DNA of 64,000 nucleotides from an uncultured Roseiarcus sp. (GCA_945957375.1 CAMFKX010000002.1:3323-67322); one strand, 5' to 3'. Counted from the stretch's first letter, positions 41,703-60,061 are shown. The notes: generated by a model not told the origin, from the sequence alone. Made by a program: numbers and translations.

Positions 41703-42509
41703 TCAGACCTCGGCGCCGAGTCGGATCGAGATCTTCCGGGCGATCTCGCGAACGTTCGAGACGATGCTGTTGATCTCGCGCTCGTCGAAATCGCGCTTCG
41801 GCAGACTGACGGCGAGGCCGGCGATCGGGCGGTTGCGCGAGTTGAGAACCGGGTATCCGAAGCACACCATCCCTTCCTTCACGCCCTCGTCGTCGATCGA
41901 ATAGCCGCGCTTCCGGCAGGCCGAGATGTCTTCGAGAAGGTCGTCGACGCTCTTTGCGCTCCGATTGGTGAGCGGCGCCGGAAATCCGTCGGCGAACAGC
42001 CGTCTGACCTCGAGTTCGGACATGGCGCCGAGGAACGCCTTGCCGGTCGCGGTGAACGCGGCCGGCAGGCGCATGCCGGCGCGGAACTCGAAGAACGGCA
42101 GGGCGTGCGAGTTGCGCGCCGCAATGTAGACGACCTCCGCGCCGTCGAGCACCGAGAGCGTGATCGTCGCGCCGGGAAACTGGGTGCCCTCGTCCCAGAT
42201 GGTGACGAATTCCGCTGCGACGTCGGAGCGCTCCGAGAAGGCGTTGGCCCAGCGCATGATGTGCGGCCCGAGATGAAAACTCTGGTCGGAGCGGCGGGTG
42301 AGCAGGCCGAGATGGGCGAGCGTGGCGCACAGGCTGTGGGCGGTGCTCCGCGCGATCCCCATCTGGCGCGCGAGTTCGGACGCGCTCAGGCCGTGCGGCG
42401 CCCGGGCGACGAGGTCCATGATGTGCGAAGCGCGCTCGACCGCGGGCACGCGCTGCGGCGTCCCGGCCTTGGCCCCGGCGTTTCCCGTCCTCACTTTCGC
42501 CGCTGACAT
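41703..42509 (-). CDS. IclR-family regulator, BlcR/AttJ-like
   Basis: VPAVERASHIMDLV HTH, GPHIMRWANAF, GMRLPAAFTATGK and RGYSIDD; resembles Agrobacterium BlcR as recalled. Divergent from an attM-like operon. Confidence 0.88.
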   Translation of the reverse strand: MSAAKVRTGNAGAKAGTPQRVPAVERASHIMDLVARAPHGLSASELARQMGIARSTAHSLCATLAHLGLLTRRSDQSFHLGPHIMRWANAFSERSDVAAEFVTIWDEGTQFPGATITLSVLDGAEVVYIAARNSHALPFFEFRAGMRLPAAFTATGKAFLGAMSELEVRRLFADGFPAPLTNRSAKSVDDLLEDISACRKRGYSIDDEGVKEGMVCFGYPVLNSRNRPIAGLAVSLPKRDFDEREINSIVSNVREIARKISIRLGAEV

Positions 42510-42560
42510 TTCACTTGCCTGCCGTTTTTCTTTATGAGATGGTATCCAGAATACGGAACG

Positions 42561-42580
42561 TTGTCCAGCTAAATGGACAA
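42561..42580. promoter_or_regulatory. Candidate IclR/BlcR operator
   Basis: Perfect inverted repeat TTGTCCA-N6-TGGACAA in the AT-rich divergent promoter region. Confidence 0.55.
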
Positions 42581-42660
42581 GAGCTGGAGGAGGAAACATG
42601 GTCCTTCATGGCGCACGGCGTCGTCGCCCCTCCGCTTCCGCGAGCGCGTGAGCGGACACG

Positions 42661-43044
42661 ATGGACATTCGCGACTGGGCCATTCGCTTCGCCGACGCCT
42701 CGGACTCCGACCCGGCGATCGGGGCGATGGCGCGCTACTTCACCTGCACGTACCTGTTCGACATGGGCGAGGCGAAGGTCATCGTCGAGATGGTCGACGG
42801 CAAGGTCCATCGCATCAACATCGCTCCCCAGCCGATGGACGCCTACGACTTCGCCCTGCGGGCGAGCGCGCAGACCTGGCGGGAGTTCGCGCGCGCCGTG
42901 CCGCGGCCGATGTTTCACGGCATCTGGGCGGCGAGCTTTCGCGAGGACCTGCGCATCGAGGGCAACACGCTCGCGCTGATGCAGAACCTGCGCAACTTCA
43001 CGCTGCAGTTCGAGCTGCTGCGCAAGGTGGGGGTTCCGGTATGA
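42661..43044 (+). CDS. Small hypothetical protein, possible SCP2-like fold
   Basis: 127 aa with host-like codon usage. The pattern YDFALRASAQTWREF...LRIEGNTLALMQ resembles the ends of SCP2-like domains. Confidence 0.6.
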   Translation: MDIRDWAIRFADASDSDPAIGAMARYFTCTYLFDMGEAKVIVEMVDGKVHRINIAPQPMDAYDFALRASAQTWREFARAVPRPMFHGIWAASFREDLRIEGNTLALMQNLRNFTLQFELLRKVGVPV

Positions 43045-43086
43045 CGCGCTCGGGCATCGCGGCGGGACGGATCGGCGGAGGCGCGC

Positions 43087-43938
43087 GTGGCTAAGCACTC
43101 TCCCGTCATCGGCCGCTACGTGACCATCGACGTCGACGGCTGCGAGTACAAGGTGTTCTACCTGCAGAACGGTCAGGGCGCGCCGCTGGTCTGCCAGCAT
43201 ACCGCGGGCTGTCACAACCACCAGTGGCGCGATCTGCTCGAGGACGAGGAGATCACCCGCCACTACAACGTGATCGCCTACGATCTCGCCCGACACGGCA
43301 AGTCCGATCCGCCGCTCAACAAGGAGTGGTGGAAAGAGGAGTACCGGCTGACCGCGGACCATTACGTCAATTTCATCGTCGCCTTCTGCGACGCGCTCGA
43401 GCTCAAGGACCCGATCTTCATGGGCTCGTCGTTCGGCGGCAACGTCGCGCTTCAGCTCGCGCTGAGAAAGCCCGATCGGTTCCGCGCCGTGATCCCGGTC
43501 GAGGCGGCGGCGCACGCGCCGGGCTTCTTCCTCGACGTCTGGCGCCATCCGCACGCCAACGCCGCGCAGGTGTGCGCGAGCGGCGTCTGGGACCTCATGG
43601 CGCCGCAGTCGCCCGATCGCGACCGCTGGCTAACCTGGCACTATTACACCCAAGGGTCCGAGGCTTTTCGCGGCGATCTCTACTTCTACTCGGTCGACCA
43701 CGACCTGCGCGACCATCTCGCGAAGATCGACACGCGCCGCTGTCCGGTGGTGATGATGACCGGCACGTACGACTACCTCACGCCGCCCGACGCGACGGAG
43801 AAGACGGCGAGCGGCATCCCCGGCGGCATCTACATCGAGATGGAGGACATCGGGCACTTCCCGATGAGCGAGAACTATCCCGTGTTTCGCATCTATCTCA
43901 AGGAAGCCCTGCGGATCATCAGGGAGCGCACGGGCTGA
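43087..43938 (+). CDS. Alpha/beta hydrolase
   Basis: QHTAG oxyanion region, YDLARHGKS, nucleophile elbow GSSFGG, DYL and GHF catalytic His. Confidence 0.85.
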   Translation: MAKHSPVIGRYVTIDVDGCEYKVFYLQNGQGAPLVCQHTAGCHNHQWRDLLEDEEITRHYNVIAYDLARHGKSDPPLNKEWWKEEYRLTADHYVNFIVAFCDALELKDPIFMGSSFGGNVALQLALRKPDRFRAVIPVEAAAHAPGFFLDVWRHPHANAAQVCASGVWDLMAPQSPDRDRWLTWHYYTQGSEAFRGDLYFYSVDHDLRDHLAKIDTRRCPVVMMTGTYDYLTPPDATEKTASGIPGGIYIEMEDIGHFPMSENYPVFRIYLKEALRIIRERTG

Positions 43939-43977
43939 GGCCCGAGCTTCCGCGAAAGAGAGCTGGAACGGCAGACC

Positions 43978-44901
43978 ATGAAGATCGTCGAGTTCGATGG
44001 GCGAGGGCAGAAGGTCGAGACCGACAGCCGGTCGGTCGGCGGCGGGCGGCGGAGTTCGCTCGCGCCGCGGCCGAACCTCTCGATCGGCGGCGGCGGCGTC
44101 GGCCGCGCCCGCTCCGACGTCCAGCTCTACATGTTCCAGACCGGGACGCTGAAGACCAAGACCAAGTACATCAAGATGAACCAGGGCGAGGGCGACTTCG
44201 AGATCCCCGTGCCGTGGTATCTGATCAAGCATCCCAAGGGGATCGTGGTCATCGACGGCGGCAACGCGGTCGAGGCGGCGCTCGACAAGCGCGCCCACTG
44301 GGGCGCCGTGGTCGACGCCTACGATCCCATCATGGATCCGCGCGAGAATTGCGTCGACCAGTGCCGCTCGGTCGGCGTCAGGCCCGAGGACGTGCGCTAC
44401 GTCGTGCAGTCGCACCTCCACCTCGACCACACCGGCGCGATCGGACGCTTTCCCCGCGCCGAGCACATCGTGCAGCGGCTGGAATACGAATACGCCTACA
44501 ATCCCGACTGGTTCTCCGCCGGGGCCTACATCCGCGCCGACTTCGACCGCCCGAACCTCAACTGGAAGTTCCTCGGCGGCGAATACACCGACCATTTCGA
44601 TCTGTTCGGCGACGGCGTCGTGCGCATGATCTTCACCCCCGGGCACTCGCCCGGCCATCAGTCGTTTCTGATCACCCTGCCCAACAGCGGGCCGATCCTG
44701 CTCGCCGTCGACGCGGCCTATACGCTCGACCACTGGGAGGACAAGGCGCTGCCGGGGCTCGTCACCTCTTCGGTCGACGCGGTTCATTCCGTCGCCAAGC
44801 TGCGCAAGATCGCCGCCGACACCAAGGCGCTCGTCGTCACCGGCCACGATCCCGATCTGTGGCGCACCTTCCGCAAGGCTCCGAGCGCCTTCTACGACTG
44901 A
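43978..44901 (+). CDS. attM: N-acyl-homoserine lactone / gamma-butyrolactone lactonase, AttM/BlcC family, with N-terminal extension
   Basis: Motifs IKMNQG, EIPVP, IDGGNA, VVQSHLHLDHTGAIGRFP, TPGHSPGHQSFL, DAAYTLDHWEDKALPG and VTGHDP match Agrobacterium AttM as recalled. Confidence 0.9.
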   Translation: MKIVEFDGRGQKVETDSRSVGGGRRSSLAPRPNLSIGGGGVGRARSDVQLYMFQTGTLKTKTKYIKMNQGEGDFEIPVPWYLIKHPKGIVVIDGGNAVEAALDKRAHWGAVVDAYDPIMDPRENCVDQCRSVGVRPEDVRYVVQSHLHLDHTGAIGRFPRAEHIVQRLEYEYAYNPDWFSAGAYIRADFDRPNLNWKFLGGEYTDHFDLFGDGVVRMIFTPGHSPGHQSFLITLPNSGPILLAVDAAYTLDHWEDKALPGLVTSSVDAVHSVAKLRKIAADTKALVVTGHDPDLWRTFRKAPSAFYD

Positions 44902-44961
44902 GGCGAGGGGCGCAACGAGCGATCGAAGCCTCGCACAACGATCCATGAGGAGGAAACAACG

Positions 44962-46134
44962 ATGAAAGCCCTGAAAGTCCTGCTACTCGCCGCGACCGCC
45001 AGCCTGGTAGCGCAGGCGACGATGGCCGCCGGCCTCGACGAACTGCCGCCCGACGTCGTCAAGCGCCTCTACAGCAAGGACATGCTCGACCCGGCGCAGC
45101 CGACCGGCGCGAGCGCCTATCGCGACTTCGCCGCCAAGCGCCCGCCGCCGTGGACGATCGGCTACGCCAGCTCCTACGCCGGCAACACCTGGCGCGCCAA
45201 CGCCATGGACCACCTGCTCAAGGAGGTGGTGCCGAAGTGGAAGCAGCTCGGCCTGGTCAAGGACGTGATCATCACCCAGTCGAACCTCAACGATTCGACG
45301 CAGATCCAGCAGATGCGCCAGCTCGTCGACCAAGGCGTCGACGCGATCTTCGTGTGCTGCTCGAACCCGACCGCGCTCAACCAGAGCGTCAAATACGCCT
45401 TCGACAAGGGCGTTCCGGTGTTCTCGTTCACCGGCTACCTGACCTCGCCCTACTCGGTCAATTCTTCGGTCAACTATCAGCTCGCCGGCTACGAGATCGG
45501 CAAGGCGATGGCCGACGAGCTGAAGGGCAAGGGCAACGTCCTCGTGGTCGAGGGCATTCCCGGCACCTCGGCGTCGGACAGCCAGGACCGCGGCGTCAAG
45601 GCGGGGCTCGCGACCGCGCCGGGCGTCAAGATCGTCGGCTCGATCGCCGGCAACTGGACCGACCAGGTCGCGCAGGGCGAAGTGCAGAAGTGGCTCGCCA
45701 CCCACCCCGGCCAGCTCGACGGCATCGTCGTGCAGTCGGCGGCGGAGATGGGCGTGTTGCGCGCCATCGCCCAGTCGGGCCGCAAGGACGTCAAGATCGC
45801 GGTCGGCGGCGAGCTCGGCGCGCTGTGCTCGTGGCGCAAGGATCCGAAGATCATCTCGGCCGCCTATCAGGTCTGGCCGCCCGGCGACGAAATCGAGCTG
45901 ATCTTCGACATCATGATGCGCACCCTCGAGGGCCAGGGCCCGAAGGTGCAGTCGATCCTGGTCGACCCGATCGTGCTGACGATGGACGACGTCAAGGCCA
46001 AGCTCGACGACAAGTGCGACGCGCAGACCGCGTCGTGGTGGGAAGTGGGCCCGAACAAGTGGGGCCAGGATCCGGCTTACCTCAACCAGTTCTTCCTGAG
46101 GCCGGCCGACCCGACCGCCTTCAAGCACAACTGA
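44962..46134 (+). CDS. Sugar-type (RbsB-like) ABC transporter substrate-binding protein
   Basis: Signal peptide, QIQQMRQLVDQGVDAI and VLVVEGIPGTSAS; strong RBS GAGGAGG. Confidence 0.88.
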   Translation: MKALKVLLLAATASLVAQATMAAGLDELPPDVVKRLYSKDMLDPAQPTGASAYRDFAAKRPPPWTIGYASSYAGNTWRANAMDHLLKEVVPKWKQLGLVKDVIITQSNLNDSTQIQQMRQLVDQGVDAIFVCCSNPTALNQSVKYAFDKGVPVFSFTGYLTSPYSVNSSVNYQLAGYEIGKAMADELKGKGNVLVVEGIPGTSASDSQDRGVKAGLATAPGVKIVGSIAGNWTDQVAQGEVQKWLATHPGQLDGIVVQSAAEMGVLRAIAQSGRKDVKIAVGGELGALCSWRKDPKIISAAYQVWPPGDEIELIFDIMMRTLEGQGPKVQSILVDPIVLTMDDVKAKLDDKCDAQTASWWEVGPNKWGQDPAYLNQFFLRPADPTAFKHN

Positions 46135-46145
46135 TCCCGCCGACC

Positions 46146-46182
46146 CGGGATGGGGCCGCCTCTCGCGGGCGGCCTCATCCCG
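46146..46182 (+). terminator. Stem-loop after the SBP gene (mRNA stabiliser or attenuator)
   Basis: CGGGATGGGGCCGCC-N7-GGCGGCCTCATCCCG forms a 15-bp stem with one G-U pair. There is no U tract. Confidence 0.5.
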
Positions 46183-46208
46183 CGCGAGCCAGAGACCCCG
46201 CCCCGGCA

Positions 46209-47924
46209 ATGACCGAAGCCGCCTCGCCCATCGTCGTCACCGCCGCCGGCGTCCGAAAGTATTTCGGGCCGACGCGGGCGCTCGACGGCTGCAGCTTCTC
46301 GGCCCGCGCCGGCGAAATCCACGCCATCATCGGCGGCAACGGCTGCGGCAAGAGCACGCTCGCCAAGGTGATCTCGGGCGTCCTGCCGATCGACGGCGGC
46401 AGCTTCTCGGTCCTCGGCGAAGCGCCCTCGACGCCGGCCGAATCGCGCGCCATCGGCATCGCCACCGTCTACCAGGAGGTGCTCGTCGCCGAGGAGAGTT
46501 CGGTCGTCGACAATCTCTACATGGGCGTCGACGGCCTGTTCTCGGCCTCGGTCCCCGCCGCGCAGAAGATCCGCGACGCCGCCGCGATCATGGAGGAGCT
46601 GGCCGGCCAGCCGGTCGACCCGCTCGCGACCGTGGGCGCGCTGCCGCTCGCGATCAAGCAGTGGATCACCATCGGGCGGGCGCTGCTGTCGCGGCCGAAG
46701 GTGCTGATCCTCGACGAATCGTCGGCCGCGCTCGACTTCGACTCGACCCAGCGCCTGTTCGCCAAGATGCGCGAGCTCAGAGCCGCGGGCGCGACGGTGC
46801 TGATCGTCACTCACCGGATCGCCGAGCTGATCTCGATCTCCGATCGCGCGACCGTCATGCGCGACGGCCGCGACGTCGGCATCCTCGAGGGGGAGCAACT
46901 CACCGAAAAGAACCTGATCGCGTTGATGACGGGCGAGGCGCAGGAGGAGGCGCATCCCGAGCGGCGCGCGCCGCGCCCGGCGGGCCGGGAAGTCGTCATG
47001 CGGGCGCACCGGCTGGTCAATGCGCCGGGCTCGGCGCCCTTCGACTTCGAGCTCCTGCGCGGCGAGATCGTCGGCGTCGCCGGCCTCGACGGACAGGGGC
47101 AGAGCGAGTTCGTCCGCCACCTCGCCGGCGTCGCCCATCCGCTCGCGGGCGAGATCTCGGTTCTCTCCCGCAGCGGCGGCTTTCGCCGCATCGACCACCT
47201 CAAGACCGCGGTCAAGGAGCGCGTCGTCTACGTCTCCGGCGACCGCAAGCGCGAGGGCATCTTCGCGGCGCTGTCGATCTTCGAGAACATGACGATCCCG
47301 CTCTACCGCGAGAAGCGGCGGGCGGGCCTCCTCGGCTTCATCGACTGGCCCTCGCTCGCCGCCGTGTTCGCGCGCGAGGCGGCCAATCTCTCGCTCCGCT
47401 TCGGCGAGCGCGACGACAAGATCACCTCGCTCAGCGGCGGCAACCAGCAGAAGGTGCTGATCGGCCGCGGCTTCGCGCTCCGGCCCGACATCATCGTGCT
47501 CAACGACCCGGCGCGCGGCATCGACATCGGCGCCAAGACCGAGCTCTACCGGCAGTTGCGCGCCTTCGCCGAAGCCGGCAAATCGGTCGTCTACATGTCG
47601 AGCGAGCTCGAGGAGTTCATCGGCTTCGCCACCCGGGTGATCGTGTTCCGCGGCGGCCGCCCGTTCGACGCCTTCGCCGGCGACGAGGTCGAGGGCCACG
47701 CGATCCTCGCCGCCATGTTCGGCCAGACGAGCGGCTCGGGCCTGCGCCACGTCGCCGCCGGTCCCGAGGGGCCGCGTCCTTCCGCCGCCGTCCCGGATCC
47801 CCGGCTCGCGCCGCCGCCTGCGCGCGCCTTCGCGCCCGAGACGCCGGCTGCGCCGCCGCGGCCGACGATCAAGATCGTCGAGTTCGGCGCCCGCGGCGAG
47901 GTCGTGCGCAGGAGGAGCGCGTGA
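46209..47924 (+). CDS. Sugar-type ABC ATP-binding protein (RbsA-like, two NBDs) with Pro/Ala-rich C-terminal tail
   Basis: Motifs GGNGCGKST, LILDES, SLSGGNQQK and DPARGIDIGAK. Confidence 0.9.
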   Translation: MTEAASPIVVTAAGVRKYFGPTRALDGCSFSARAGEIHAIIGGNGCGKSTLAKVISGVLPIDGGSFSVLGEAPSTPAESRAIGIATVYQEVLVAEESSVVDNLYMGVDGLFSASVPAAQKIRDAAAIMEELAGQPVDPLATVGALPLAIKQWITIGRALLSRPKVLILDESSAALDFDSTQRLFAKMRELRAAGATVLIVTHRIAELISISDRATVMRDGRDVGILEGEQLTEKNLIALMTGEAQEEAHPERRAPRPAGREVVMRAHRLVNAPGSAPFDFELLRGEIVGVAGLDGQGQSEFVRHLAGVAHPLAGEISVLSRSGGFRRIDHLKTAVKERVVYVSGDRKREGIFAALSIFENMTIPLYREKRRAGLLGFIDWPSLAAVFAREAANLSLRFGERDDKITSLSGGNQQKVLIGRGFALRPDIIVLNDPARGIDIGAKTELYRQLRAFAEAGKSVVYMSSELEEFIGFATRVIVFRGGRPFDAFAGDEVEGHAILAAMFGQTSGSGLRHVAAGPEGPRPSAAVPDPRLAPPPARAFAPETPAAPPRPTIKIVEFGARGEVVRRRSA

Positions 47925-49273
47925 GCGCGGTCCCCGCCGGAGGCCGGGCGCCCGCGGCGATCGCCGGCGCCCGCTCGAGCCCGCATCTGCTGATGCCGAT
48001 GACGCTGCTGTTCGCGCTCCTGATCATCGCGGTGCTGCGTTCGCCGGTGCTCGTCACCAACGCCGGGCTCGGCAGCGCGGTGATCGTGGCCGCGCCGCTG
48101 ATCCTCGCGACCTACGCTCTGATGTCGACGGTGGTGGCGGGCCGCGGCACCGTCGATCTCGCAATCGGGCCGCTGATCAGCTTCATCAACGTGACGCTGA
48201 TCCAGCTCGTCGCCGCCGACGTGATCGGCTCGCCGATCATCGTGTTCGTCTACGCCGTCGCCGTCGGCATGGCCTACCAGCTCCTGATGGCGCTGATCGT
48301 CATCTTCGTCCGCGTCCAGCCGATCATCGTGTCGCTGTCGGGCTTCCTCGCGCTCTCCGGCATCAACCTCGTCATTCTGCCGAGGCCCGGCGGCGTCGCG
48401 CCGGACTGGATGGCGTCGTGGGGCGCGGGGACGTCGGTGTTCTCGCCGGTCATGGCCATCCTCGCGCTCGCCAGCCTCGCCTGGCTGCTCATGACCCGCA
48501 CCGCCTTCTTCACCCATCTGCGCCTGATGGGCTCGGACGAGCGCGCGGCCTACACGAGCGGCATTCCGATCACCCTCGTGCGCATCGGCGCGCATCTCAT
48601 GGCCGGGTTTTTCGCCGGGCTCTCGGCGATTTGCTTCACCGCGCTGATCGGGTCGGGCGACCCGGGGCAGGGCACCACCTACACGCTGCTCGCCGTGACC
48701 GCGCTGGTGCTCGGCGGCGCCTCGCTCGGCGGCGGCCGGGCGAGTCTCGCGGGCTCGCTCATCGGCGCGGTCGACCTCTATCTCATCACCTACGTGCTCT
48801 CGACCTTCTCCTTCGGCGGCATCCAGAGCTTCGTCACCGACCTGTGCTACGGGGCGATCCTGGTCGCCTCGCTCCTCCTCACCCTGACGCTGCCGGTGAT
48901 CCAGCGGACCATCGGCGCCTTCTCGTCGCTGCTCTATTTCGTCGCGCTCGCCATCGTCGCCCTCGGCGTAATCCTCTACTCGACCTGGACCGGCGACGGG
49001 CCGGCTGCGCCGGGCTCGGCCGCCGCGGGCTTCCTCGAGATCGAGGCGCTGCGCGGCGCGGCGAGCGGGGCCGAGCGCGACGGCCGGATCTGGGCGTTCG
49101 TCGGCGTCCTGCTCCTGACCCTGCCGCTGATCGCCCGGACGCTGATCATGGGCGCGTCGCGCCGCGGCATCGGGCCGATCGTCACCATCGTGCTGGCCGG
49201 CGTCGTCCTGCTCGGCGTCTATCTCGCGACCCACGGCGTCGCCAGCGCGCCGCACGGGTTCGCCCGGCCATGA
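47921..49273 (+). CDS. ABC transporter permease (RbsC-like) with C-terminal extra TM segments
   Basis: Motifs DLAIG, GSDERAAYTSGI and ALVLGGASLGGG. About 450 aa; GTG start overlaps the upstream stop. Confidence 0.85.
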   Translation: MSAVPAGGRAPAAIAGARSSPHLLMPMTLLFALLIIAVLRSPVLVTNAGLGSAVIVAAPLILATYALMSTVVAGRGTVDLAIGPLISFINVTLIQLVAADVIGSPIIVFVYAVAVGMAYQLLMALIVIFVRVQPIIVSLSGFLALSGINLVILPRPGGVAPDWMASWGAGTSVFSPVMAILALASLAWLLMTRTAFFTHLRLMGSDERAAYTSGIPITLVRIGAHLMAGFFAGLSAICFTALIGSGDPGQGTTYTLLAVTALVLGGASLGGGRASLAGSLIGAVDLYLITYVLSTFSFGGIQSFVTDLCYGAILVASLLLTLTLPVIQRTIGAFSSLLYFVALAIVALGVILYSTWTGDGPAAPGSAAAGFLEIEALRGAASGAERDGRIWAFVGVLLLTLPLIARTLIMGASRRGIGPIVTIVLAGVVLLGVYLATHGVASAPHGFARP

Positions 49274-50640: not shown

Positions 50641-50682
50641 AGGAAAGCCCATGACAGCCAGAGACCTTCGGGAGCCGGGCCG

Positions 50683-51393: not shown

Positions 51394-51444
51394 GGACGGC
51401 GCCGCCGCCCTCGGAAAGACAAAGTGAATTCTGGAGCTGACGAA

Positions 51445-53118
51445 ATGAACGGCGCCGACATCATCGCGGTCATCATCCTGGCGGCCATCGTCATCGCGAT
51501 CCTCGCCTATCTCCTGCACTGGCTCTATCGCCGGTCGACCAAGGACGTCTCGTTCGTCCGGACCGGCCTCGGCGGCGAGAAGGTGATCATGGGCGGCGGT
51601 GCCTTCATCCTGCCGATCGTCCACGACCTGACCGAAGTCAGCATGAACACTTTGCGGCTGCAGGTGACGCGCGCCCGCGAAAAATCGCTGATCACCAAGG
51701 ACCGCATGCGCATCGAGCTCGAAGTCGAGTTCTATGTCCGCGTCGTGCCGAACGCGGCCGAGGTCGCGACCGCGGCGCGCACGCTCGGCCGGCGCACCAT
51801 GGATCCCGAGAAGCTGCGCGAACTGGTGCAGGGCCGCTTCGTCGACGCGATGGGCGCCGTCGCCGCCTCGATGACGCTCGAGGAGATGCACGAGCGGCGC
51901 GACCGCTTCATCGCCGGCGTCAAGGCGGAGGTTGTCAAGAACCTCGGGCAGAACGGCCTCGAACTCGAGGCGGTGTCGCTCGTTTCGCTCGACCAGGCCG
52001 ACATGAAGCTCTTCAACCCGGCCAACGCCTTCGACGCCGAGGGCCTCACCCGCCTCACCGAGGAGATCGAGTCGCGCAAGAAGAAGCGCAACGACATCGA
52101 GCAGGACACGATGATCGCGATCCGCAACAAGAATCTCGAGGCCGAGAAGATGGCGCTCGAGATCGCGCGCGAGAGCGAGTACGCGCGCCTCGCGCAGGAG
52201 GGCGAGATCGCCGTGCGGCGCGCGCAGCAGGCGGCCGAGGTCGAGCGCGAGCGCGCGGCGCGCGAGCGCGACATCGAGGCGGCCAAGATCGAGGAGCGCG
52301 AGCAGGTCGAGCGCATCCGCATCGCCATGGAGCGTCAGCTCGAGGCGCTCGAGATCAGCCGGATCGAGGCGCGCGAGATCGCCGAGCAGGCGCGCGAGAT
52401 CGCGGTGGCGGAAAAGTCGCAGGAGCGCTCCCGCAGCCAGACCGCGGCGGAAGAGGCGCGCAAGGCGCTGCTCGAGGCGCAGGAAGGCGTCGAGACCGCG
52501 CGCGAGACGGCGGTGGCGAACCGCAGGCGCGAGATCGACCTGATCGCGGCGAGGCGTCAGGCCGAGGTCGAGGCGGTCAGGGTCACGATCTCGGCGGAAG
52601 CCGAGAAGGCCGCCGCCGCCGACCGCGCCGAGGCCGACCGCATCGCCGTCGCGGCGCTGAAGGAGCGCTCCGCGGTCGAGGCGGAGGCGAAGCGCGCCGT
52701 GAACGAGGCGGAGAACCTGCGTTCCGACGCGAGCCGCCGCAGCGCTCTGCACCAGAAGCTCGTCGAGGCGCTGCCGTCGATCATCCGCGAGAGCGTCAAG
52801 CCGATGGAGCGCATCGAAGGCATCAAGATTCTCCACGTCGAGGGTCTGCCCGGCCTGTCGAGCCCGGGCGCGGCGGGCGGCGGCGGCGACAGCGGCGGAG
52901 GCGCGCCGTCTGCGCCTCGGGACGGCAATCTCGCCGAGGAGGTGGTCAGCTCGGCGCTGCGCTACCGGGCGCAGGCGCCGTTCGTCGACACGCTGCTCGG
53001 CGAAATCGGCCTCAACTCGGCCGACATCCATCGCACGCAGCCGCTGCAGAACCTGTCGAAGATCGTCTACTCGCAGACGAACGAACCGGATCGCGGACCC
53101 GAGCGCGGCGGCCGGTGA
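51445..53118 (+). CDS. Flotillin-family (SPFH/band 7) membrane scaffold protein
   Basis: N-terminal TM, FVRTGLGGEKV, ITKDRMR..VEFYVRV, SLDQ, FNPANAFDAEGLT and a long E/A/R coiled coil. GGAG RBS lies before ATG 51445. Confidence 0.92.
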   Translation: MNGADIIAVIILAAIVIAILAYLLHWLYRRSTKDVSFVRTGLGGEKVIMGGGAFILPIVHDLTEVSMNTLRLQVTRAREKSLITKDRMRIELEVEFYVRVVPNAAEVATAARTLGRRTMDPEKLRELVQGRFVDAMGAVAASMTLEEMHERRDRFIAGVKAEVVKNLGQNGLELEAVSLVSLDQADMKLFNPANAFDAEGLTRLTEEIESRKKKRNDIEQDTMIAIRNKNLEAEKMALEIARESEYARLAQEGEIAVRRAQQAAEVERERAARERDIEAAKIEEREQVERIRIAMERQLEALEISRIEAREIAEQAREIAVAEKSQERSRSQTAAEEARKALLEAQEGVETARETAVANRRREIDLIAARRQAEVEAVRVTISAEAEKAAAADRAEADRIAVAALKERSAVEAEAKRAVNEAENLRSDASRRSALHQKLVEALPSIIRESVKPMERIEGIKILHVEGLPGLSSPGAAGGGGDSGGGAPSAPRDGNLAEEVVSSALRYRAQAPFVDTLLGEIGLNSADIHRTQPLQNLSKIVYSQTNEPDRGPERGGR

Positions 53119-53162
53119 CACCGTACGCAAGCGCGCGAACCGCATCGCGATGAGGACATCTC

Positions 53163-53582
53163 GTGGACACTGACCGGTATGTCGAGCACGGGATCGCCGT
53201 CTTCGCCGCCTGGGGCGTGTTCGGCGCGATCGCCGTCGGCTTCCTGATGGAGGGGATTTCGCGCGAAGCCTACCTGCTGTCGCTCGTGGGCGTCGCGGCG
53301 GCGATCGCCGGCTTCGTCGCCCACCTGCTCGTCAACGCCTGGTTCGGGCTGACGTTCTCGCGCGCCGAGGGCGGGCTCGGGCTCGCGGCGCTCGGTCTCG
53401 TGACGCTGGTGTTCACCGTGTCGTGGCTCGCGAGCGGGCTCGCCCAGACGACGGTCTGGACCGGCCTGACGCTGATCGCCGCGCTGATCGCGACCGCCTT
53501 CCTCTATCTCGCCACCCGCTTCGGGGTGAGAGGCGCGTTCTCGCAATATCACGGGCGACGCGAAGGCGGCGGGCGGCGATGA
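53163..53582 (+). CDS. Small 4-TM membrane protein of unknown function
   Basis: Four hydrophobic helices; GAGGA RBS; its stop overlaps the next start. Confidence 0.75.
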   Translation: MDTDRYVEHGIAVFAAWGVFGAIAVGFLMEGISREAYLLSLVGVAAAIAGFVAHLLVNAWFGLTFSRAEGGLGLAALGLVTLVFTVSWLASGLAQTTVWTGLTLIAALIATAFLYLATRFGVRGAFSQYHGRREGGGRR

Positions 53583-55519
53583 ACCTCACCGCGGCCCAGA
53601 TCTGGCTCATCGCGTTCGGGACGGCCTATGTGGCCGCGACCTCGTTCTGGGCCCGCCAGTGCTCGCTGCGGGAAAAGGGGGCGCGCCGCTACCTCTCGGC
53701 GACGGGCGAGCTTCCCGGCTGGATCGTCGCGCTCGCGCTGGCCGCGGTGAGCCTCTCGGCGTGGTTCGCGCTGGGACTGCCGGACGCCGTCGCGCGCGAC
53801 GGATTTTCCGGCGCGGGGCTTGCGCTCGCCACCATCCCGATGGCGCTGGTCGGGGTCGCGACCTTCAAGCGGCAGTGGCAGACCGCGCGCCGCTTCGGCG
53901 CGCGCAGCCAGGCGCAGCTGCTCGCCTTCTACTACCGCTCGCGCGGCTTCGCGTGGCTCTCCGGGGGACTCGCGGCCCTGTTCGCGGTCGCCTTCGCCGC
54001 GCTCCAGCTCGCCGTGCTCGGCAGGCTGATGGCGGATCTCTCCGGCGGCGGCATCGCCCCGGAGCCGGCCACGTGGCTCCTCAGCCTCATGACCTTCTCC
54101 TACGTGATCGTCGGCGGGTTCTACGCCGCCGGGGCGCTCGGCGCCCTGCAATGCGTCTTGCTCGCGGGCGGCGTCGTCGGACTCGCGATCGCGGCCGGCG
54201 AGCTCGGCGGCGGCTTCGCCGCGATCAATTTCGCGCTCGGGAAGCTCGCCGAAGTCCCGGCCAACGCCCATCTCTTCCAGGTGTCGGGCGTCGTCCGCTT
54301 CGTCGCCGGCGCCGACGACGGCGGCGGCTGGACCGCCGCGCTGGTGCTCTCGACCGCGCTCGCGCTCGCGGGCGTGCAGGCGAGCCCGATCGCGACCCAG
54401 CTCCTGCTCTCGGCGCGCGACGACCGTGCGGTCGCGGCCGGCCAGACTTGGGTGCTCGCGGCCTTCTTCGGCGGCCTGTGCGCGTTCGGCCTCGTGCTCG
54501 TCGGCGCCTGGGGCATGGCGTTCGCGTCGAAGGATGCGGTCGGGGACCTGCTCGCCCGGCTCGGCGCCGGCTCGCCATGGTTCATGGCGGCGATTTATTT
54601 CGGGCTGGTCGCCGGCTTCCAGGCGCTCGCCGCGGTGAGCGTCCTGACCGCCGCGCGCGGGCTCGTGCGCGACATCTTCGTGCCCGACTTCATGCCCGAC
54701 CTTTCCGGAGAGACCGCGAACCTGATCGGGCGCGTCGCGGTCGGCCTGCTGATGCTCGTGAGCGTCCTCCTCGCGACGCGCGCGCCCGCCGCCACAGTGT
54801 CGCTCGGCGCGCTCGCGCTCCCTTTCGCCGCGCAGATGCTTCCGGCGCTCGTGGGCCTGTGCTGGCTGCGCTGGATCATGCCTCCTGCGGCCCTCGTCGG
54901 CGCCGTCGTCGGCCTCGCGGTCGTGGCGCTGACCGACAGTTTCGGCCTGGCGCTCATGGATTTCGTCGGCCTGCACCTGCCCTGGGGCCGCTGGCCGTGG
55001 ACGATCCACTCCGCCGGCTGGGGTCTCGCCGCCAACGCCGCGACGATCCTGGTCATCACCGCGATCGCCCCGGCGCGCCGGGCGAGCCAGCGGGCGGCGA
55101 CCCTCGACGAGTTCTTCGCCGGGCTCGGCGCGCCGCGGCCGCCCGCCCGCGGCGTCAGTTCGGCGGCCTGGTCGGCGGCGCTCGCCTGGCTGTTCGCCGG
55201 CGTGGGGCCGGGGCTCCTGTTCGGCAATTTCGCCTTCGGGCAGAGCGGCGGCGGCTTCGGCGGGTGGCTGCTCGGCATGCCGCCGTTGTGGGCGTGGTGC
55301 CTGCTGATGTGGTCGCTCGGCGTCATTCTCGTCTGGCTCGTCGCCTACCGGCTTCGGCTCGCGACCCCGGCGGGCGTCGAGATCCCGCCGATCGAAAGCG
55401 GTCCGGAAGGCCGGAAGCGCGCCGCCGGCCTTCGCGTTGACCATCTTGAGGCGCTTCTTTGGGCCCTCAGCGGCGCCGGGGCGCTGATTACCGCCGCGGC
55501 GTGGACCTTCGGACACTGA
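53579..55519 (+). CDS. Divergent sodium:solute symporter (SSS) family protein
   Basis: About 13-15 TM segments. SSS-like N-terminal pattern YLSATGELPGW..A..AVSLSAWFALGLP..VARDG, plus KRQW..ARRFG and WPWTIHSAGWG. Confidence 0.7.
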   Translation: MNLTAAQIWLIAFGTAYVAATSFWARQCSLREKGARRYLSATGELPGWIVALALAAVSLSAWFALGLPDAVARDGFSGAGLALATIPMALVGVATFKRQWQTARRFGARSQAQLLAFYYRSRGFAWLSGGLAALFAVAFAALQLAVLGRLMADLSGGGIAPEPATWLLSLMTFSYVIVGGFYAAGALGALQCVLLAGGVVGLAIAAGELGGGFAAINFALGKLAEVPANAHLFQVSGVVRFVAGADDGGGWTAALVLSTALALAGVQASPIATQLLLSARDDRAVAAGQTWVLAAFFGGLCAFGLVLVGAWGMAFASKDAVGDLLARLGAGSPWFMAAIYFGLVAGFQALAAVSVLTAARGLVRDIFVPDFMPDLSGETANLIGRVAVGLLMLVSVLLATRAPAATVSLGALALPFAAQMLPALVGLCWLRWIMPPAALVGAVVGLAVVALTDSFGLALMDFVGLHLPWGRWPWTIHSAGWGLAANAATILVITAIAPARRASQRAATLDEFFAGLGAPRPPARGVSSAAWSAALAWLFAGVGPGLLFGNFAFGQSGGGFGGWLLGMPPLWAWCLLMWSLGVILVWLVAYRLRLATPAGVEIPPIESGPEGRKRAAGLRVDHLEALLWALSGAGALITAAAWTFGH

Positions 55520-55539
55520 CGGATGAGGAGAGGAAGCGC

Positions 55540-56697
55540 ATGAACCCCTTCACCTTCAACACAAGCGCCGGCATCCAGTTCGGGGCGGGGGCGATCGCCC
55601 GGATCGGCGCGCTGGCGCGCGAGCGGCTGGGCCCGCGCGTGCTCCTCGTCACCGACCCCGGCATGGTGGCGACCGGCATGGTCGACCGGGTGATGGGCCT
55701 GCTCGCGGAAGCCTGCGTCGCGGCGGAAGTCTTCGCCGACGTCGTCGCCGACCCGCCGGCCCAGATGATCCTGACCGCCGTCGAGAAAGCGACCGCGGCC
55801 GGGACGACCGGCGTGCTCGGCTTTGGCGGCGGCTCCTCGCTCGACACGGCGAAGCTCGTCGCCCTGCTCGCGCCGGGCCGCCAACAGCTCGCCGACGTGT
55901 TCGGGGTCGGCAACGCCAAAGGGCCCCGGCTGCCGATGATCCTGGTGCCGACGACCTCCGGAACGGGGTCCGAGGTGACGCCGATCTCGATCGTCACCAC
56001 CGGCGAGAACGAGAAGATGGGCGTCGTCTCGCCGGTCATCCTGCCCGACGTCGCCCTGCTCGACCCGGAGCTGACGCTCGGCCTGCCGCCCCACGTCACC
56101 GCCGCGACCGGAATCGACGCGATGGTGCACGCCATCGAGGCCTATGCCTCGCGCAACGCCAACGCCAATCCGGTCTCGCGCGCGCTCGCCAAGGAGGCGC
56201 TGGCGCTCCTCGGCGGCGCGATCGAGACTGCGGTCCATGACGGCGCCAACCTCGAGGCGCGCTCGGCCATGCTGCTCGGCTCGATGCTCGCCGGCCAGGC
56301 CTTCGCCAATTCGCCGGTCGCCGCGGTGCACGCGCTCGCCTATCCGCTCGGCGGCCATTTCCACATTCCCCACGGCCTCTCGAACGCGCTGGTGCTGCCG
56401 CACGTGCTGCGCTTCAACTGCAAGACCGCTCCCGACGCATACGTCGACATCGCGCCGATCGCCTTTCCGGACCTCGCGCGGCTCGAGGGGCAGGCGCGGG
56501 CGGAGGCCTTCTGCGACGCGCTCGAGGCCCTGTCGCAGCGCTGCAACCTGCCGCCGCGCCTGCGCGACGCCGGGGTCCCGGAAGCCATCCTGCCGACGCT
56601 GGCGCGCGACGCCATGAAGCAGACGCGCCTGTTGCCGAACAATCCGCGCCCCGTGACAGAGCCGGACGCGCTCGAGATCTATCGGCGCGCTTTCTAA
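55540..56697 (+). CDS. Iron-containing alcohol dehydrogenase, 4-hydroxybutyrate dehydrogenase (BlcB/AttL)-like
   Basis: Motifs GGGSSLDTAK, PTTSGTGSEVT, GIDAMVHAIE, VHALAYPLG and PHGLSNA. Confidence 0.88.
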   Translation: MNPFTFNTSAGIQFGAGAIARIGALARERLGPRVLLVTDPGMVATGMVDRVMGLLAEACVAAEVFADVVADPPAQMILTAVEKATAAGTTGVLGFGGGSSLDTAKLVALLAPGRQQLADVFGVGNAKGPRLPMILVPTTSGTGSEVTPISIVTTGENEKMGVVSPVILPDVALLDPELTLGLPPHVTAATGIDAMVHAIEAYASRNANANPVSRALAKEALALLGGAIETAVHDGANLEARSAMLLGSMLAGQAFANSPVAAVHALAYPLGGHFHIPHGLSNALVLPHVLRFNCKTAPDAYVDIAPIAFPDLARLEGQARAEAFCDALEALSQRCNLPPRLRDAGVPEAILPTLARDAMKQTRLLPNNPRPVTEPDALEIYRRAF

Positions 56698-56711
56698 GCG
56701 AGGAAACGAAC

Positions 56712-58160
56712 ATGCTGAACCTCAACGATCCGTCGCTGCTCGTCTCCGACGCGTACATCGACGGCCAGTGGATCAAGGCCGAACGGCGGTCACAAGTCCG
56801 CAATCCGGCCAATGGCCAGATCGTCGCCGAAGTCGCCGACGTCGGGGTCGCGGGCGCCCGCGCCGCGATCGACGCGGCCGAGCGCGCGCAGCCGGAATGG
56901 GCGGCGCGCACCGCGCGCGACCGGTCGAACATTCTTCTCGAATGGAACCGGCTGATGCTCGCCAATGTCGAGGATCTCGCCCGCATCCTGACCGCGGAAA
57001 TGGGCAAGCCGCTCGCCGAGGCGAGGGGGGAGATCGCCTATGGCGCGAGCTTCATCGAGTGGTTCGCTCAGGAAGGCCGGCGGGTCTACGGGGACACCAT
57101 CCCCGGCCACCAGCCCGACAAGCGCATTCTCGTCATGAAGCAGCCGATCGGGGTCGCAGCGTCGATCACGCCATGGAACTTCCCGAACGCGATGATCGCG
57201 CGCAAGGTCGGCCCGGCGCTCGCCGCCGGCTGCGCCTTCGTCGCCCGCCCCGCCGAACTGACGCCGCTCTCGGCGCTGGCGATGGCCGTGCTCGGCGAAC
57301 GCGCGGGAATCCCGAAGGGCGTGCTCAACGTCGTCACCAGTCACGATTCCGCCGGCGTCGGTCTAGAATTCTGCACGAACCCGAAAGTGCGCAAAATTTC
57401 GTTCACCGGGTCGACGCGGGTCGGCTCGATCCTGATGCGCCAGAGCGCCGACGGGATCAAGAAGCTGAGCCTCGAACTCGGCGGCAACGCGCCGTTCATC
57501 GTGTTCGACGACGCCGACCTCGACAAGGCGGTCGAAGGCGCGATGATCGCCAAATTCCGCAACGCCGGGCAGACCTGCGTGTGCGCCAACCGGATCTACG
57601 TGCAGCGCGGCGTCCATGACGCGTTCGCGGCGAAACTCGCCGCCGCCGTCGGACGGCTGAAAGTCGGCGACGGCGCGGAGGCCGGCGTGCAGATCGGCCC
57701 GCTGATCGAGAGGGCGGCGCTCGACAAGGTCGAGAGCCATGTCGCCGACGCTCTCGCCAAGGGGGCGAAAGTCGCGACCGGCGGGCGCCGGCACGCGGCG
57801 GGCGACCTGTTCTACGAGCCGACCGTTCTGACCAACGCGACCGCCGACATGCTGCTCGCGCGCGAGGAGACGTTCGGTCCCGTCGCGCCGCTGTTTCCCT
57901 TCGACACGGTCGAGGAGGCGATCGCGCTCGCCAACGACACGGAGTTCGGCCTCGCCTCCTACTTCTACGCCCGCGATCTCAGCCGGGTGTGGAAGGTCGC
58001 GGAGGCGCTCGAATACGGGATGGTCGGCGTCAACACCGGGCTCGTGTCCACGGCGGAGGCGCCGTTCGGCGGCGTCAAGATGTCGGGCCTCGGACGGGAA
58101 GGGTCGAAATACGGGATCGACGAGTATCTGACGCTGAAATACGTCTGCCTGTCGATCTGA
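56712..58160 (+). CDS. gabD: NAD(P)-dependent succinate-semialdehyde dehydrogenase (GabD/BlcA-like)
   Basis: Motifs ITPWNFP, ISFTGST, LELGGNAP, KFRNAGQTCVCANR, EETFGP and GREGSKYG. Confidence 0.9.
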   Translation: MLNLNDPSLLVSDAYIDGQWIKAERRSQVRNPANGQIVAEVADVGVAGARAAIDAAERAQPEWAARTARDRSNILLEWNRLMLANVEDLARILTAEMGKPLAEARGEIAYGASFIEWFAQEGRRVYGDTIPGHQPDKRILVMKQPIGVAASITPWNFPNAMIARKVGPALAAGCAFVARPAELTPLSALAMAVLGERAGIPKGVLNVVTSHDSAGVGLEFCTNPKVRKISFTGSTRVGSILMRQSADGIKKLSLELGGNAPFIVFDDADLDKAVEGAMIAKFRNAGQTCVCANRIYVQRGVHDAFAAKLAAAVGRLKVGDGAEAGVQIGPLIERAALDKVESHVADALAKGAKVATGGRRHAAGDLFYEPTVLTNATADMLLAREETFGPVAPLFPFDTVEEAIALANDTEFGLASYFYARDLSRVWKVAEALEYGMVGVNTGLVSTAEAPFGGVKMSGLGREGSKYGIDEYLTLKYVCLSI

Positions 58161-60027: not shown

Positions 60028-60061
60028 TGGGTTTCCTCCCGATTTTCGCCGCCGCTCGCGT

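Follow-up and report, generated by a model that had tools for sequence, protein, structure and literature searches.

What does a rhodopsin that lacks its Schiff-base lysine do among genes for lactone breakdown? The question is raised by a locus of an uncultured Roseiarcus sp. in a 64-kb window (the whole stretch of DNA that was analysed), where such a rhodopsin and a flotillin are encoded between two transport systems.

Gene content and relation to known clusters

Genes were called from an ORF map combined with Pfam and NCBIfam scans. A 16-kb operon of 13 co-directional genes (42661-58160, plus strand) diverges from a gene for a 268-aa, BlcR-like IclR-family repressor (41703-42509, minus strand; IclR_C 95.6 bits, HTH_IclR 51.5 bits). 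The operon genes are spaced, in order, by 42, 39, 60, 74, -4, -4, 42, 30-51, 44, -4, 20 and 14 nt, with 74 nt as the largest gap and 4-nt overlaps elsewhere. The initial annotation had described this layout of abutting or overlapping genes, and both it and the named coordinates were borne out. No intergenic terminator that would part the rhodopsin and flotillin genes from attM, ADH and gabD emerged from a scan of the operon, whose three terminator-like sites all lie within coding sequence (7.1 in shuffled sequences). The gene that follows the operon encodes an AMP-ligase and is convergent.

When the cluster was searched with the Blc proteins of A. fabrum pAtC58, matches to BlcR (42% identity), BlcA (62%), BlcB (55%) and BlcC (64%) were recovered, all of them by far the best in the 5.6-Mb genome, and the blcR/blcABC set proposed at the outset is indeed recognisable. 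The lactonase of the AttM/BlcC family (43978-44901) scores 444.7 bits against NCBIfam NF045700 (cut-off 390) and is 63.5% identical to A. fabrum AttM. Its start was placed at 43978 because the conserved N-terminal peptide MKIVEF begins there in all homologues; an internal ATG at 44131 was ruled out. The iron-dependent alcohol dehydrogenase (Fe-ADH; 55540-56697; Fe-ADH 154.5 bits, ADH_Fe_C 179.7 bits) is the orthologue of BlcB, the GHB dehydrogenase, and the only such match in the genome; it falls below every NCBIfam equivalog cut-off. The last gene of the operon (56712-58160) encodes the succinic semialdehyde dehydrogenase (SSADH), a BlcA orthologue that passes TIGR01780 with 708.3 bits (cut-off 646), the next-best match to BlcA in the genome reaching 38%. 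The blc pathway and its repression by BlcR have been described in Agrobacterium (blcR/blcABC, or attJ/attKLM, on pAtC58; PMC3907764), where the repressor is likewise divergent. That operon is a compact one of three genes in the order A-B-C, whereas the order here is C ... B-A and nine extra genes are interspersed (two of a hydrolase module, two transport systems, rhodopsin and flotillin).

The hydrolase module consists of an SCP2-like protein (127 aa, 42661-43044) and an alpha/beta hydrolase (43087-43938; Abhydrolase_1 78.9 bits). No other protein of the cluster is as strongly conserved as the latter (82-94% identity across loci). Among characterised proteins it comes closest to esterases, enol-lactonases and MCP hydrolases, all of them distant (E 4e-11 or worse), and the classical blc pathway has no step for it. 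The gene identities assigned initially were confirmed, apart from the SCP2 fold, which is a weak assignment: the Pfam SCP2 model is sub-threshold for this protein (13.2 bits), as are all other Pfam models, and Foldseek returned no significant match from a poor AF2 model (pLDDT 60). The Pfam SCP2 model does match 18 of the 27 homologues, and the protein is 63-68% identical to those annotated as 'SCP2 sterol-binding superfamily' in the SAR11 and HIMB59 clusters described next.

The initial annotation had regarded the locus as an undescribed system, a view that could not be upheld. Haro-Moreno et al. (mSystems 2023, PMC10308929) had already described the rhodopsin-flotillin pair with its neighbouring genes in SAR11 (Pelagibacterales), HIMB59 and Pseudothioglobus, under the name of flotillin-associated rhodopsin (FAR) gene cluster. 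Table S2 of that paper lists rhodopsin-flotillin, SCP2-like protein, alpha/beta hydrolase, AttM lactonase, Fe-ADH, SSS transporter and a sugar-type ABC transporter, the last two being marked present in all three marine taxa. Freshwater metagenomes had yielded Lys-less FAR relatives in the same study, the Schiff-base site being occupied by Q, T, L or R. The function of the cluster is without explanation in published work (PMC10308929).

The present cluster has the same dead-pocket proteorhodopsin-family rhodopsin immediately upstream of a same-strand flotillin, and the same accessory set, including a large SSS protein and an ABC transporter of sugar type whose permeases are oversized. Identities to SAR11 AG-390-L03 are 79% for the alpha/beta hydrolase, 63% for the SCP2-like protein, 64% for AttM, 57% for Fe-ADH and 29% for FAR. 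It represents the FAR gene cluster in an alphaproteobacterium of soil or freshwater. It differs from the marine members in its divergent BlcR-like IclR gene with a conserved operator motif, its SSADH and the 4-TM partner of its SSS protein, and in the predicted gathering of all genes into one operon, and it lacks their formamidase-like and PxpABC/carboxylase genes. Carriers of the present type include large-genome, cultured bacteria from soil, plants and sediment, as well as plasmids. Since the marine clusters lack IclR and SSADH and carry amidase/carboxylase-type genes, what unites the family may be something other than GBL catabolism. No connection between the FAR cluster and the blc pathway was drawn in PMC10308929; the full Agrobacterium-type gene set for GBL breakdown, the repressor and the putative operator are new to it, and with these beside it a blind rhodopsin gains a testable job.

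About 20 species from several families share the gene order, at 40-94% protein identity; it is found in cultured isolates and on plasmids, among them one of Hoeflea, and the arrangement is therefore not due to chance. The order kept is IclR, SCP2-like protein, hydrolase, AttM, four ABC genes, FAR, flotillin and SSS, followed by Fe-ADH in most loci and by SSADH in about half. Loss of this linkage in other genomes had been named as grounds for rejecting the initial reading; instead, it is strongly conserved. We consider it probable that the locus is one regulon, in which a BlcR-type IclR protein controls a divergent 13-gene operon for uptake and catabolism of a small lactone or hydroxy-acid, and that this Lys-less alphaproteobacterial member of the FAR cluster includes a rhodopsin-flotillin scaffold.

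The repressor and its putative operator

The IclR protein aligns with A. fabrum BlcR over 245 aa, and the next-best match in the genome reaches 27% identity. Within the 151-nt divergent intergenic region lies a palindrome, GTCCAGCTAAATGGAC (42563-42578), which overlaps the -35-like hexamer of the promoter on the iclR strand. GTYCA-N6-TGRAC is matched exactly nowhere else in the window (0.09 matches expected). GTTCA-N6-TGAAC, with at most one mismatch, occurs at the equivalent position in all 15 related divergent spacers compared, and the Agrobacterium blcR-blcA spacer holds a palindrome of the same type, GTTCAATTAGTTGAAC. The consensus over the compared loci is GT[T/C]CA-N6-TG[A/G]AC; at the present locus and one other (L003), matched T-to-C and A-to-G changes are found in both half-sites. 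From sequence alone, we regard the palindrome as a putative BlcR-type site.

In three related loci (L023, L024, L026) the palindrome lies just upstream of the binding-protein gene that heads a separate ABC-FAR-flotillin-SSS operon, and a fourth (L019) has two copies, one per operon, each facing its operon. The suspicion that rhodopsin and flotillin obey the same repressor is thereby strengthened, and comparative evidence backs their predicted co-regulation. The repressor would sit on GTCCAGCTAAATGGAC between the two promoters and be released once it binds an intermediate of the pathway. The inducer may be succinic semialdehyde, GHB or GBL, as the analogy to BlcR of Agrobacterium suggests.

Rhodopsin and flotillin

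The rhodopsin (236 aa, 50683-51393; PF01036 60.6 bits) has its best PDB match in PsFAR (9r21, 146 bits), followed by the paralogue PsPR (117 bits), and it falls within the Lys-less FAR clade of the tree. In an ungapped alignment to PsFAR, and likewise in an alignment to the SAR11 FAR, the Schiff-base position is taken by Leu213 (codon 51319-51321), in agreement with the lysine loss noted initially. PsFAR residues K213, H84, E120 and D79 are replaced by L213, M84, R120 and G79. With neither lysine nor counter-ion Asp, and with its pocket predicted to be filled by Met84 and Arg120, the protein cannot bind retinal. [quoted passage not shown]

For marine FARs, the favoured hypothesis is that FAR modulates a proton-pumping proteorhodopsin as a light-related accessory; in marine single-cell genomes, FAR is always accompanied by a proteorhodopsin paralogue. 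Here, however, lysine and counter-ion are lost, no second rhodopsin gene was found in the 96%-complete genome, nor in any of 10 other carriers (three complete chromosomes), and PsFAR itself does not bind retinal. Such a role is very improbable for the present protein and is already contradicted for the Lys-less FAR clade.

The flotillin (51424-53118, likely start ATG 51445) combines SPFH/Band_7 and Flot domains (PF01145 54.8 bits, PF15975 115.1 bits), matches the FloT model weakly (53 bits, cut-off 700) and has an N-terminus near-identical to that of the flotillin in the SAR11 FAR cluster. A flotillin gene follows FAR in every FAR-type locus examined (n=30). In the functional membrane microdomains of Bacillus subtilis, the flotillins FloT and FloA have NfeD partners, and there too the gene for a flotillin with SPFH and Flot domains directly follows that for a polytopic membrane protein within an operon, an adjacency that suggests a scaffold-plus-partner pair. 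In the present locus a retinal-free rhodopsin with 7 TM helices takes the place of NfeD, and the pair belongs to a catabolic operon. Rhodopsin and flotillin would form a light-independent membrane scaffold that holds importers and enzymes together. In SAR11, published metatranscriptome reads bridge FAR and flotillin; in the PsFAR structure, an adaptation to flotillin binding is not obvious (Kovalev et al. 2025, PDB 9r21).

The same genes could be read as a module in which SCP2-like protein, hydrolase, rhodopsin and flotillin remodel or build lipid domains, with the blc-like enzymes and transporters as mere neighbours sharing an island. The flotillin and SCP2-like annotations suit this reading, which was suggested in the 2023 paper itself (PMC10308929); FAR, SSS and the 4-TM protein are fast-evolving, a trait to be expected in structural membrane proteins, and the genome's second flotillin paralogue likewise adjoins lipid-binding SRPBCC proteins. 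We nevertheless hold it to be improbable: the linkage of enzymes and transporters survives several rearrangements and extends across classes, and it is the ABC-FAR-flotillin operon that the putative operator precedes where that operon has split off.

Transport, terminal peptides and the candidate substrate

Two importers would serve the proposed regulon. The first is a CUT2-type ABC system, whose periplasmic binding protein (44962-46134; Peripla_BP_4 137.6 bits) has CUT2 proteins 4rs3, 5hko and 4rsm as best solved relatives (E 3e-22); it is of sugar/polyol type and not an obvious binder of lactones or hydroxy-acids. The double-NBD ATPase (46209-47924; ABC_tran in two stretches) aligns in its core with residues 10-506 of YtfR/AraG-type models. 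Permease 1 (47921-49273; BPD_transp_2 58.9 bits) has an extra C-terminal region and overlaps both neighbours by 4 nt, and permease 2 (49270-50640; BPD_transp_2 81.2 bits, residues 169-440) has an N-terminal extension of about 165 aa; in related loci, its gene always comes immediately before that for the rhodopsin. The second importer is a divergent SSS-family symporter (646 aa, 53579-55519; PF00474 34.4 bits), which almost every FAR locus encodes (30-75% identity) and whose SAR11 counterpart has 688 aa and 16 TM helices. Its start is overlapped by 4 nt by the stop of the 4-TM protein gene (139 aa, 53163-53582), a probable accessory subunit without a Pfam or NCBIfam match that is recognisable in part of the related loci at 33-72% identity.

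The substrates might instead be N-acyl-homoserine lactones (AHLs) or similar hydrophobic lactone signals, scavenged or quenched. The SCP2-like protein would then carry the acyl chain, AttM open the ring, the alpha/beta hydrolase remove the acyl group, and Fe-ADH and the aldehyde dehydrogenase oxidise the homoserine-type product, while the flotillin domain concentrates membrane-partitioned signals. The lactonase does pass a curated 'AttM family quorum-quenching AHL lactonase' model, and an SCP2-like protein hints at a hydrophobic ligand. Esterase 5egn, the closest solved relative of the alpha/beta hydrolase, degrades AHLs. BlcC degrades AHLs as well as GBL, but in Agrobacterium it supports growth on GBL and not on AHLs (PMC3907764). 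Two further points speak against AHLs: the binding protein is of sugar/polyol type, and the last enzyme passes the specific SSADH model, an indication of a C4 hydroxy-acid route. The cluster is, moreover, widespread in SAR11-type oligotrophs, for which no AHL-signalling role was found in the literature searched. We judge AHLs an unlikely substrate. In the favoured small-lactone or hydroxy-acid regulon, the AttM/BlcC lactonase and the strongly conserved alpha/beta hydrolase, paired with the SCP2-like protein, would supply two hydrolases, and Fe-ADH (BlcB) and SSADH (BlcA) would oxidise a 4-hydroxy-acid to the semialdehyde and on to succinate.

One terminal peptide, (K/R)I(V/I)EF, is common to the lactonase and the ABC ATPase and is conserved in homologues. 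It forms the lactonase N-terminus (MKIVEFD, 43978-43998), followed by a low-complexity linker of about 45 aa, and ends the C-terminal tail of about 65 aa on the ATPase (IKIVEFG, 47868-47888). The peptide is docking-like, and its presence on both proteins fits tethering to a common partner. A physical tie of the soluble lactonase to the transport machinery, beyond mere position, would also weigh against the lipid-domain module. The tag occurs twice in the window and, over six frames, four times genome-wide; it occupies the same termini across loci and is additionally found on a non-AttM MBL lactonase.

Gene content and blc-like wiring of the cluster

The high G+C content of the window (~70%) gives rise to many spurious open reading frames, and a single consistent gene set occupies positions 41703-58160, formed by an IclR regulator gene on the minus strand (41703-42509) and 13 divergent genes on the plus strand (42661-58160). 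The gene identities named in the initial annotation were each confirmed by Pfam and NCBIfam. After a first gene whose 127-aa product (the SCP2-like protein) matches no family significantly, the plus strand genes encode, in order, an alpha/beta hydrolase (43087-43938), an AttM-family lactonase scoring above the curated cut-off (NF045700, 444.7 bits against 390), a binding protein (SBP) of the Peripla_BP_4 family, an ABC ATPase with two NBDs, a pair of BPD_transp_2 permeases, a rhodopsin (Bac_rhodopsin), a flotillin, a 4-TM protein of 139 aa, a divergent transporter of the sodium:solute symporter family (SSS), an Fe-ADH that reaches 250.8 bits with the 4-hydroxybutyrate dehydrogenase model, under its cut-off of 500, and an aldehyde dehydrogenase scoring above the cut-off of the SSADH model (TIGR01780, 708.3 bits against 646.35). 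Similarities of the SBP are weak and of sugar/polyol type, without an equivalog, and an assignment of the substrate from this protein was rejected on these grounds. The SCP2-like protein scores 13.2 bits with PF02036 (cut-off 21.3), with sub-threshold matches in 18 of 27 homologues. SCP2 chains are among its top Foldseek matches but with E >0.1, and the AF2 model is poor (pLDDT 60), which leaves the sub-threshold Pfam matches as support for an SCP2 fold.

Intergenic gaps measure 14-74 nt, three junctions overlap by 4 nt, and a consensus scan for terminators and promoters found none between the operon genes, nor any terminator-like hairpin. The downstream neighbour of the operon is a convergent gene. 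Wider limits were considered and rejected: the Zn-ADH and SDR genes upstream, and the convergent AMP-dependent ligase and 1080-aa biotin carboxylase-BCCP-carboxyltransferase single chain downstream (58312-63304, minus strand), are not kept beside the cluster in other loci, and the limits of 41703-58160 therefore stand. Carboxylase-type genes also occur in marine clusters of this kind; since the ligase/carboxylase pair is not conserved beside the cluster elsewhere, this likeness may be a coincidence.

We retrieved the Agrobacterium fabrum pAtC58 locus through its lactonase match, and compared its four Blc proteins against the 5.6-Mb genome that contains the window. BlcR is 42% identical to the cluster's regulator (next-best protein in the genome, 27%), BlcA 62% to its SSADH (next-best 38%), BlcB 55% to its Fe-ADH (no other match), and BlcC 64% to its lactonase (63.5% for A. 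fabrum AttM; next-best 26%). With each match well above the next-best, the blc-like content proposed in the initial annotation holds. In Agrobacterium this pathway converts gamma-butyrolactone (GBL) through GHB and succinic semialdehyde to succinate, and these three compounds (GBL, GHB and succinic semialdehyde) lift the repression exerted by BlcR (PMC3907764). The arrangement differs, since Agrobacterium has a compact blcA-blcB-blcC operon, whereas in the window transport, rhodopsin and flotillin genes lie between attM and the Fe-ADH-SSADH pair. Both systems share a divergent IclR-type repressor gene and, as judged from the spacer sequences, a putative operator palindrome.

The 151-nt divergent spacer of the window carries GTCCAGCTAAATGGAC at 42563-42578, the single exact match in the window to GTYCA-N6-TGRAC (0.09 expected). 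The form GTTCA-N6-TGAAC, with at most one mismatch, occupies the same relative place in all 15 Rhizobiales and Rhodobacterales spacers, and the window and its near relative (L003) have a symmetric variant, with a T-to-C change in one half-site and an A-to-G change in its partner. The Agrobacterium blcR-blcA spacer carries GTTCAATTAGTTGAAC, and our comparison with the BlcR site is based on this spacer sequence itself. In three loci (L023, L024 and L026) the IclR gene and hydrolase module lie elsewhere, and the motif closely precedes the SBP gene, the first of an operon of ABC transporter, rhodopsin, flotillin and SSS genes; in a fourth (L019) there are two copies, each facing one operon. Background loci amounting to 0.9 Mb of SAR11 DNA contain two matches. 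As sequence evidence, this distribution, at the divergent promoter and before the split-off operons, is the strongest support available for the rhodopsin and flotillin being under the same repressor, as had been suggested, and makes it probable. Internal operator-like sites were rejected, since the 4 one-mismatch matches are about as many as chance predicts (3.3).

A flotillin-associated rhodopsin, probably without a light role

The rhodopsin of the window aligns without gaps to PsFAR (PDB 9r21), the flotillin-associated rhodopsin (FAR) of known structure. PsFAR is the top match among all PDB chains (146 bits), followed by its proteorhodopsin (PR) paralogue PsPR (117 bits) and other PRs (at most 110 bits). 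In this alignment the helix G Schiff-base lysine, a feature of retinal-binding microbial rhodopsins, is replaced by Leu213, the counter-ion Asp by Gly79, and Met84 and Arg120 occupy the positions of the two residues blocking the PsFAR retinal pocket. In the other loci the Schiff-base site is R, Q or E, and K is kept only in marine and sponge-symbiont FARs and in PRs. The flotillin gene lies directly 3' of the rhodopsin gene on the same strand, with a gap of 30-51 nt, and follows it in 30 of the 30 FAR-type loci examined; in SAR11, metatranscriptome reads have been reported to span both genes.

The initial annotation regarded the locus as the best candidate for an undescribed system, a claim that does not survive the literature, because both the FAR cluster and Lys-less FARs are already published. 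The SAR11 single-cell genome AG-390-L03 carries genes for a FAR, a flotillin, an SCP2-superfamily protein, an alpha/beta hydrolase, a formamidase-like enzyme with small partners, a 16-TM SSS, an Fe-ADH, an AHL-lactonase-family protein, carboxylase-type proteins and a sugar-type ABC transporter (Table S2 of PMC10308929), and freshwater metagenomes contain, beside flotillins, FARs whose Schiff-base residue is Q, T, L or R (PMC10308929). The window shares with this cluster the alpha/beta hydrolase (79% identity to the SAR11 counterpart), lactonase (64%), SCP2-like protein (63%) and Fe-ADH (57%), as well as SSS and ABC transporters, while FAR identity is 29%. Marine clusters differ in their regulators and in carrying additional genes of amidase and carboxylase type. 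The locus thus adds a member to the published family of FAR gene clusters, within the Lys-less branch. The 2025 PsFAR structure paper closes with a call for work on the rhodopsin-flotillin complex, and our literature search found no paper combining flotillin, rhodopsin and AttM or lactonase.

A tree of FARs and PRs, built without an outgroup and with pumps represented by a subset of SAR11 PR loci, has three groups meeting at one node: Lys-less FARs, Lys-bearing marine and sponge FARs including PsFAR and the SAR11 FAR, and the pumps. This topology is compatible with a single origin of FARs, which the shared synteny favours.

In marine carriers a proton-pumping PR paralogue has been reported as a constant companion, an association rather than a definition of FARs in that study (PMC10308929), and assistance to PR is the hypothesis favoured for marine FARs. 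A PF01036 search found one rhodopsin gene in the 96%-complete genome of the window and one in each of 10 other carriers (three with complete chromosomes, one with a Lys-bearing FAR), with no PR paralogue elsewhere in any of these genomes. Assistance to PR therefore cannot be a general role, and the cluster, which appears to work without any PR partner, is probably not a light system. A search for the Blh family of retinal synthesis (PF15461) returned no match, but control genomes were equally silent.

Conservation and probable horizontal spread

A protein search returned 759 relatives, many of them from cultured Rhizobiales and Rhodobacterales, the closest named one being from Roseiarcus fermentans (88% identity). 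Scanning one genome per species yielded 597 loci, of which 80 were fetched and 30 are FAR-type; the lower-ranked ones (L030-L081, except L051 and L077) were set aside as ordinary SAR11 PR loci without any cluster gene. About 20 species, including Oricola, Hoeflea, Rhizobium aquaticum, Rhizobium sp. LjRoot30, Roseovarius, Cohaesibacter, a Martelella plasmid, Rhodobiaceae and Paracoccaceae, have an identical order of IclR (minus strand), SCP2-like, hydrolase, AttM, SBP, ATPase, two permeases, FAR, flotillin, in some cases the 4-TM protein, and SSS, followed by Fe-ADH in most and also by SSADH in about half. The proposed linkage of the rhodopsin-flotillin pair with blc-like genes is thus conserved. 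In the more distant Tistlia, Hypericibacter, Lichenifustis, Rhodospirillales and sponge symbionts, parts are rearranged and the permease-FAR-flotillin-SSS and SCP2-hydrolase-lactonase groupings are kept. In the closest MAG locus (L002:1409-8584), the lactonase match ends after 71 residues and is followed by ~7 kb of unmatched sequence until permease 2, which may reflect masking, an insertion or an assembly fault.

The whole cluster is plasmid-borne in Martelella (OY781108.2, L021) and in Hoeflea sp. IMCC20628, where it adjoins copper-resistance genes on a complete 123-kb plasmid (NZ_CP011481.1, L083), ~1.7 kb from an IS5 transposase. Within the window's own genus it was found in 3 of 25 genomes, with FARs 45-54% identical to that of the window, and across the class a high-identity hydrolase was present in 5 of the 401 genomes sampled. 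Such a rare and patchy distribution fits a mobile accessory island and, together with plasmid carriage, points to horizontal spread.

The proteins differ widely in conservation. The alpha/beta hydrolase is by far the most conserved, at 82-94% identity across orders and classes, which is unusual for this fold; its first strand is followed by a conserved segment, CQHTAGCHNHQWR. FARs range over 39-80%, and outside the two closest loci SSS identity falls to 30-40% and that of the 4-TM protein to 33-45%. By these comparisons, the membrane "scaffold" parts evolve fast around a hydrolase that hardly changes.

A shared peptide tag and a proposed working

The lactonase and the ABC ATPase share a short peptide, (K/R)I(V/I)EF or, with its flanking residues, (M/I)(K/R)I(V/I)EF(D/G), each copy on a low-complexity linker. 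The lactonase reading frame starts with MKIVEFDGRG (tag at 43978-43998), followed by a ~45-aa linker and then the conserved core, and the ATPase has a ~65-aa tail with IKIVEFGARG (tag at 47868-47888), 12 residues before the stop codon. The strict motif occurs twice in the window in all six frames and four times in the whole 5.6-Mb genome. Almost all FAR loci have it at these two termini, some with two to four copies, and it is also found on another MBL lactonase with 29% identity to AttM. In sponge-associated Rhodospirillaceae MAGs (L051:5728-6075 and L077:1261-2095), the ABC ATPase and permease 1 are separated by three tandem IKIVEFD copies, in a reading frame that differs from the ATPase match; these could represent a small "tag protein" in its own right or result from a frameshift.

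Two sister genomes (L016 and L017; complete chromosomes OZ254962.1 and OZ246977.1) keep AttM, the ABC transporter, FAR, flotillin, SSS and Fe-ADH. No orthologue of the alpha/beta hydrolase was found anywhere in either genome, nor the SCP2-like gene in a search of the two loci; the ATPase tag is gone and that of the lactonase is degenerate (MKFNECDGRD). The tag looks like a docking peptide tying a soluble enzyme and an importer to one partner, which we offer as a lead only, and because tags and hydrolase were lost together, in what counts as one evolutionary event, this partner is possibly the hydrolase/SCP2-like pair.

We consider it somewhat probable that the cluster as a whole is a BlcR-type-repressed uptake and catabolism operon with a rhodopsin-flotillin platform. 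Its substrate would be a small lactone or hydroxy-acid imported by the ABC system, the SSS or both; AttM and the alpha/beta hydrolase would open the ring or ester, Fe-ADH and SSADH would oxidise the product to succinate, and the rhodopsin, presumably free of retinal, and the flotillin would form a membrane platform. Counting against this model are the sugar/polyol-type SBP, the absence of SSADH from about half of the loci, and the marine clusters with their other regulators and amidase and carboxylase genes.

A bolder version, a "transport metabolon", is tentative and on balance rather doubtful. Here rhodopsin and flotillin would nucleate a membrane cage holding the ABC importer and SSS beside enzymes docked through the tag of lactonase and ATPase, with the ultra-conserved hydrolase/SCP2-like pair as likely partner. 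With importers caged beside docked enzymes, an imported lactone or ester would be hydrolysed and oxidised at its point of entry, under a BlcR-type metabolite switch. If true, this would be the first function assigned to FARs, with the rhodopsin fold reused as a light-independent scaffold.

FARs abound in the bacteria that are most common in the ocean, one structure has been solved, and their study has been described as limited to uncultivated cells. The same cluster is present on plasmids and in cultured bacteria, some of them likely open to genetics, including a close relative in Roseiarcus fermentans, Rhizobium aquaticum DSM 29780, Rhizobium sp. LjRoot30 and Leaf391, Tistlia consotensis and the Hoeflea sp. 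IMCC20628 plasmid. In these bacteria our comparisons also tie it to BlcR/BlcABC, a repressor and pathway that are well understood, and to a candidate operator that can be recognised, a wiring that provides concrete inducers, substrates and knockouts to try, and the docking-like tag is a handle for finding physical partners. FAR function becomes testable through these carriers, the lack of a PR partner, the known type of repressor and operator, and the tag.

The genome of the window encodes a second flotillin paralogue (G000:C34:26300-28500; L086:4583-7528), 57% identical over the SPFH domain. It follows a Peripla_BP_6-type ABC transporter and a UPF0261/PEP-hydrolase-like pair and precedes two SRPBCC (Polyketide_cyc2) lipid-binding proteins, with no rhodopsin, and is thus another flotillin amid transport, enzyme and ligand-carrier genes.
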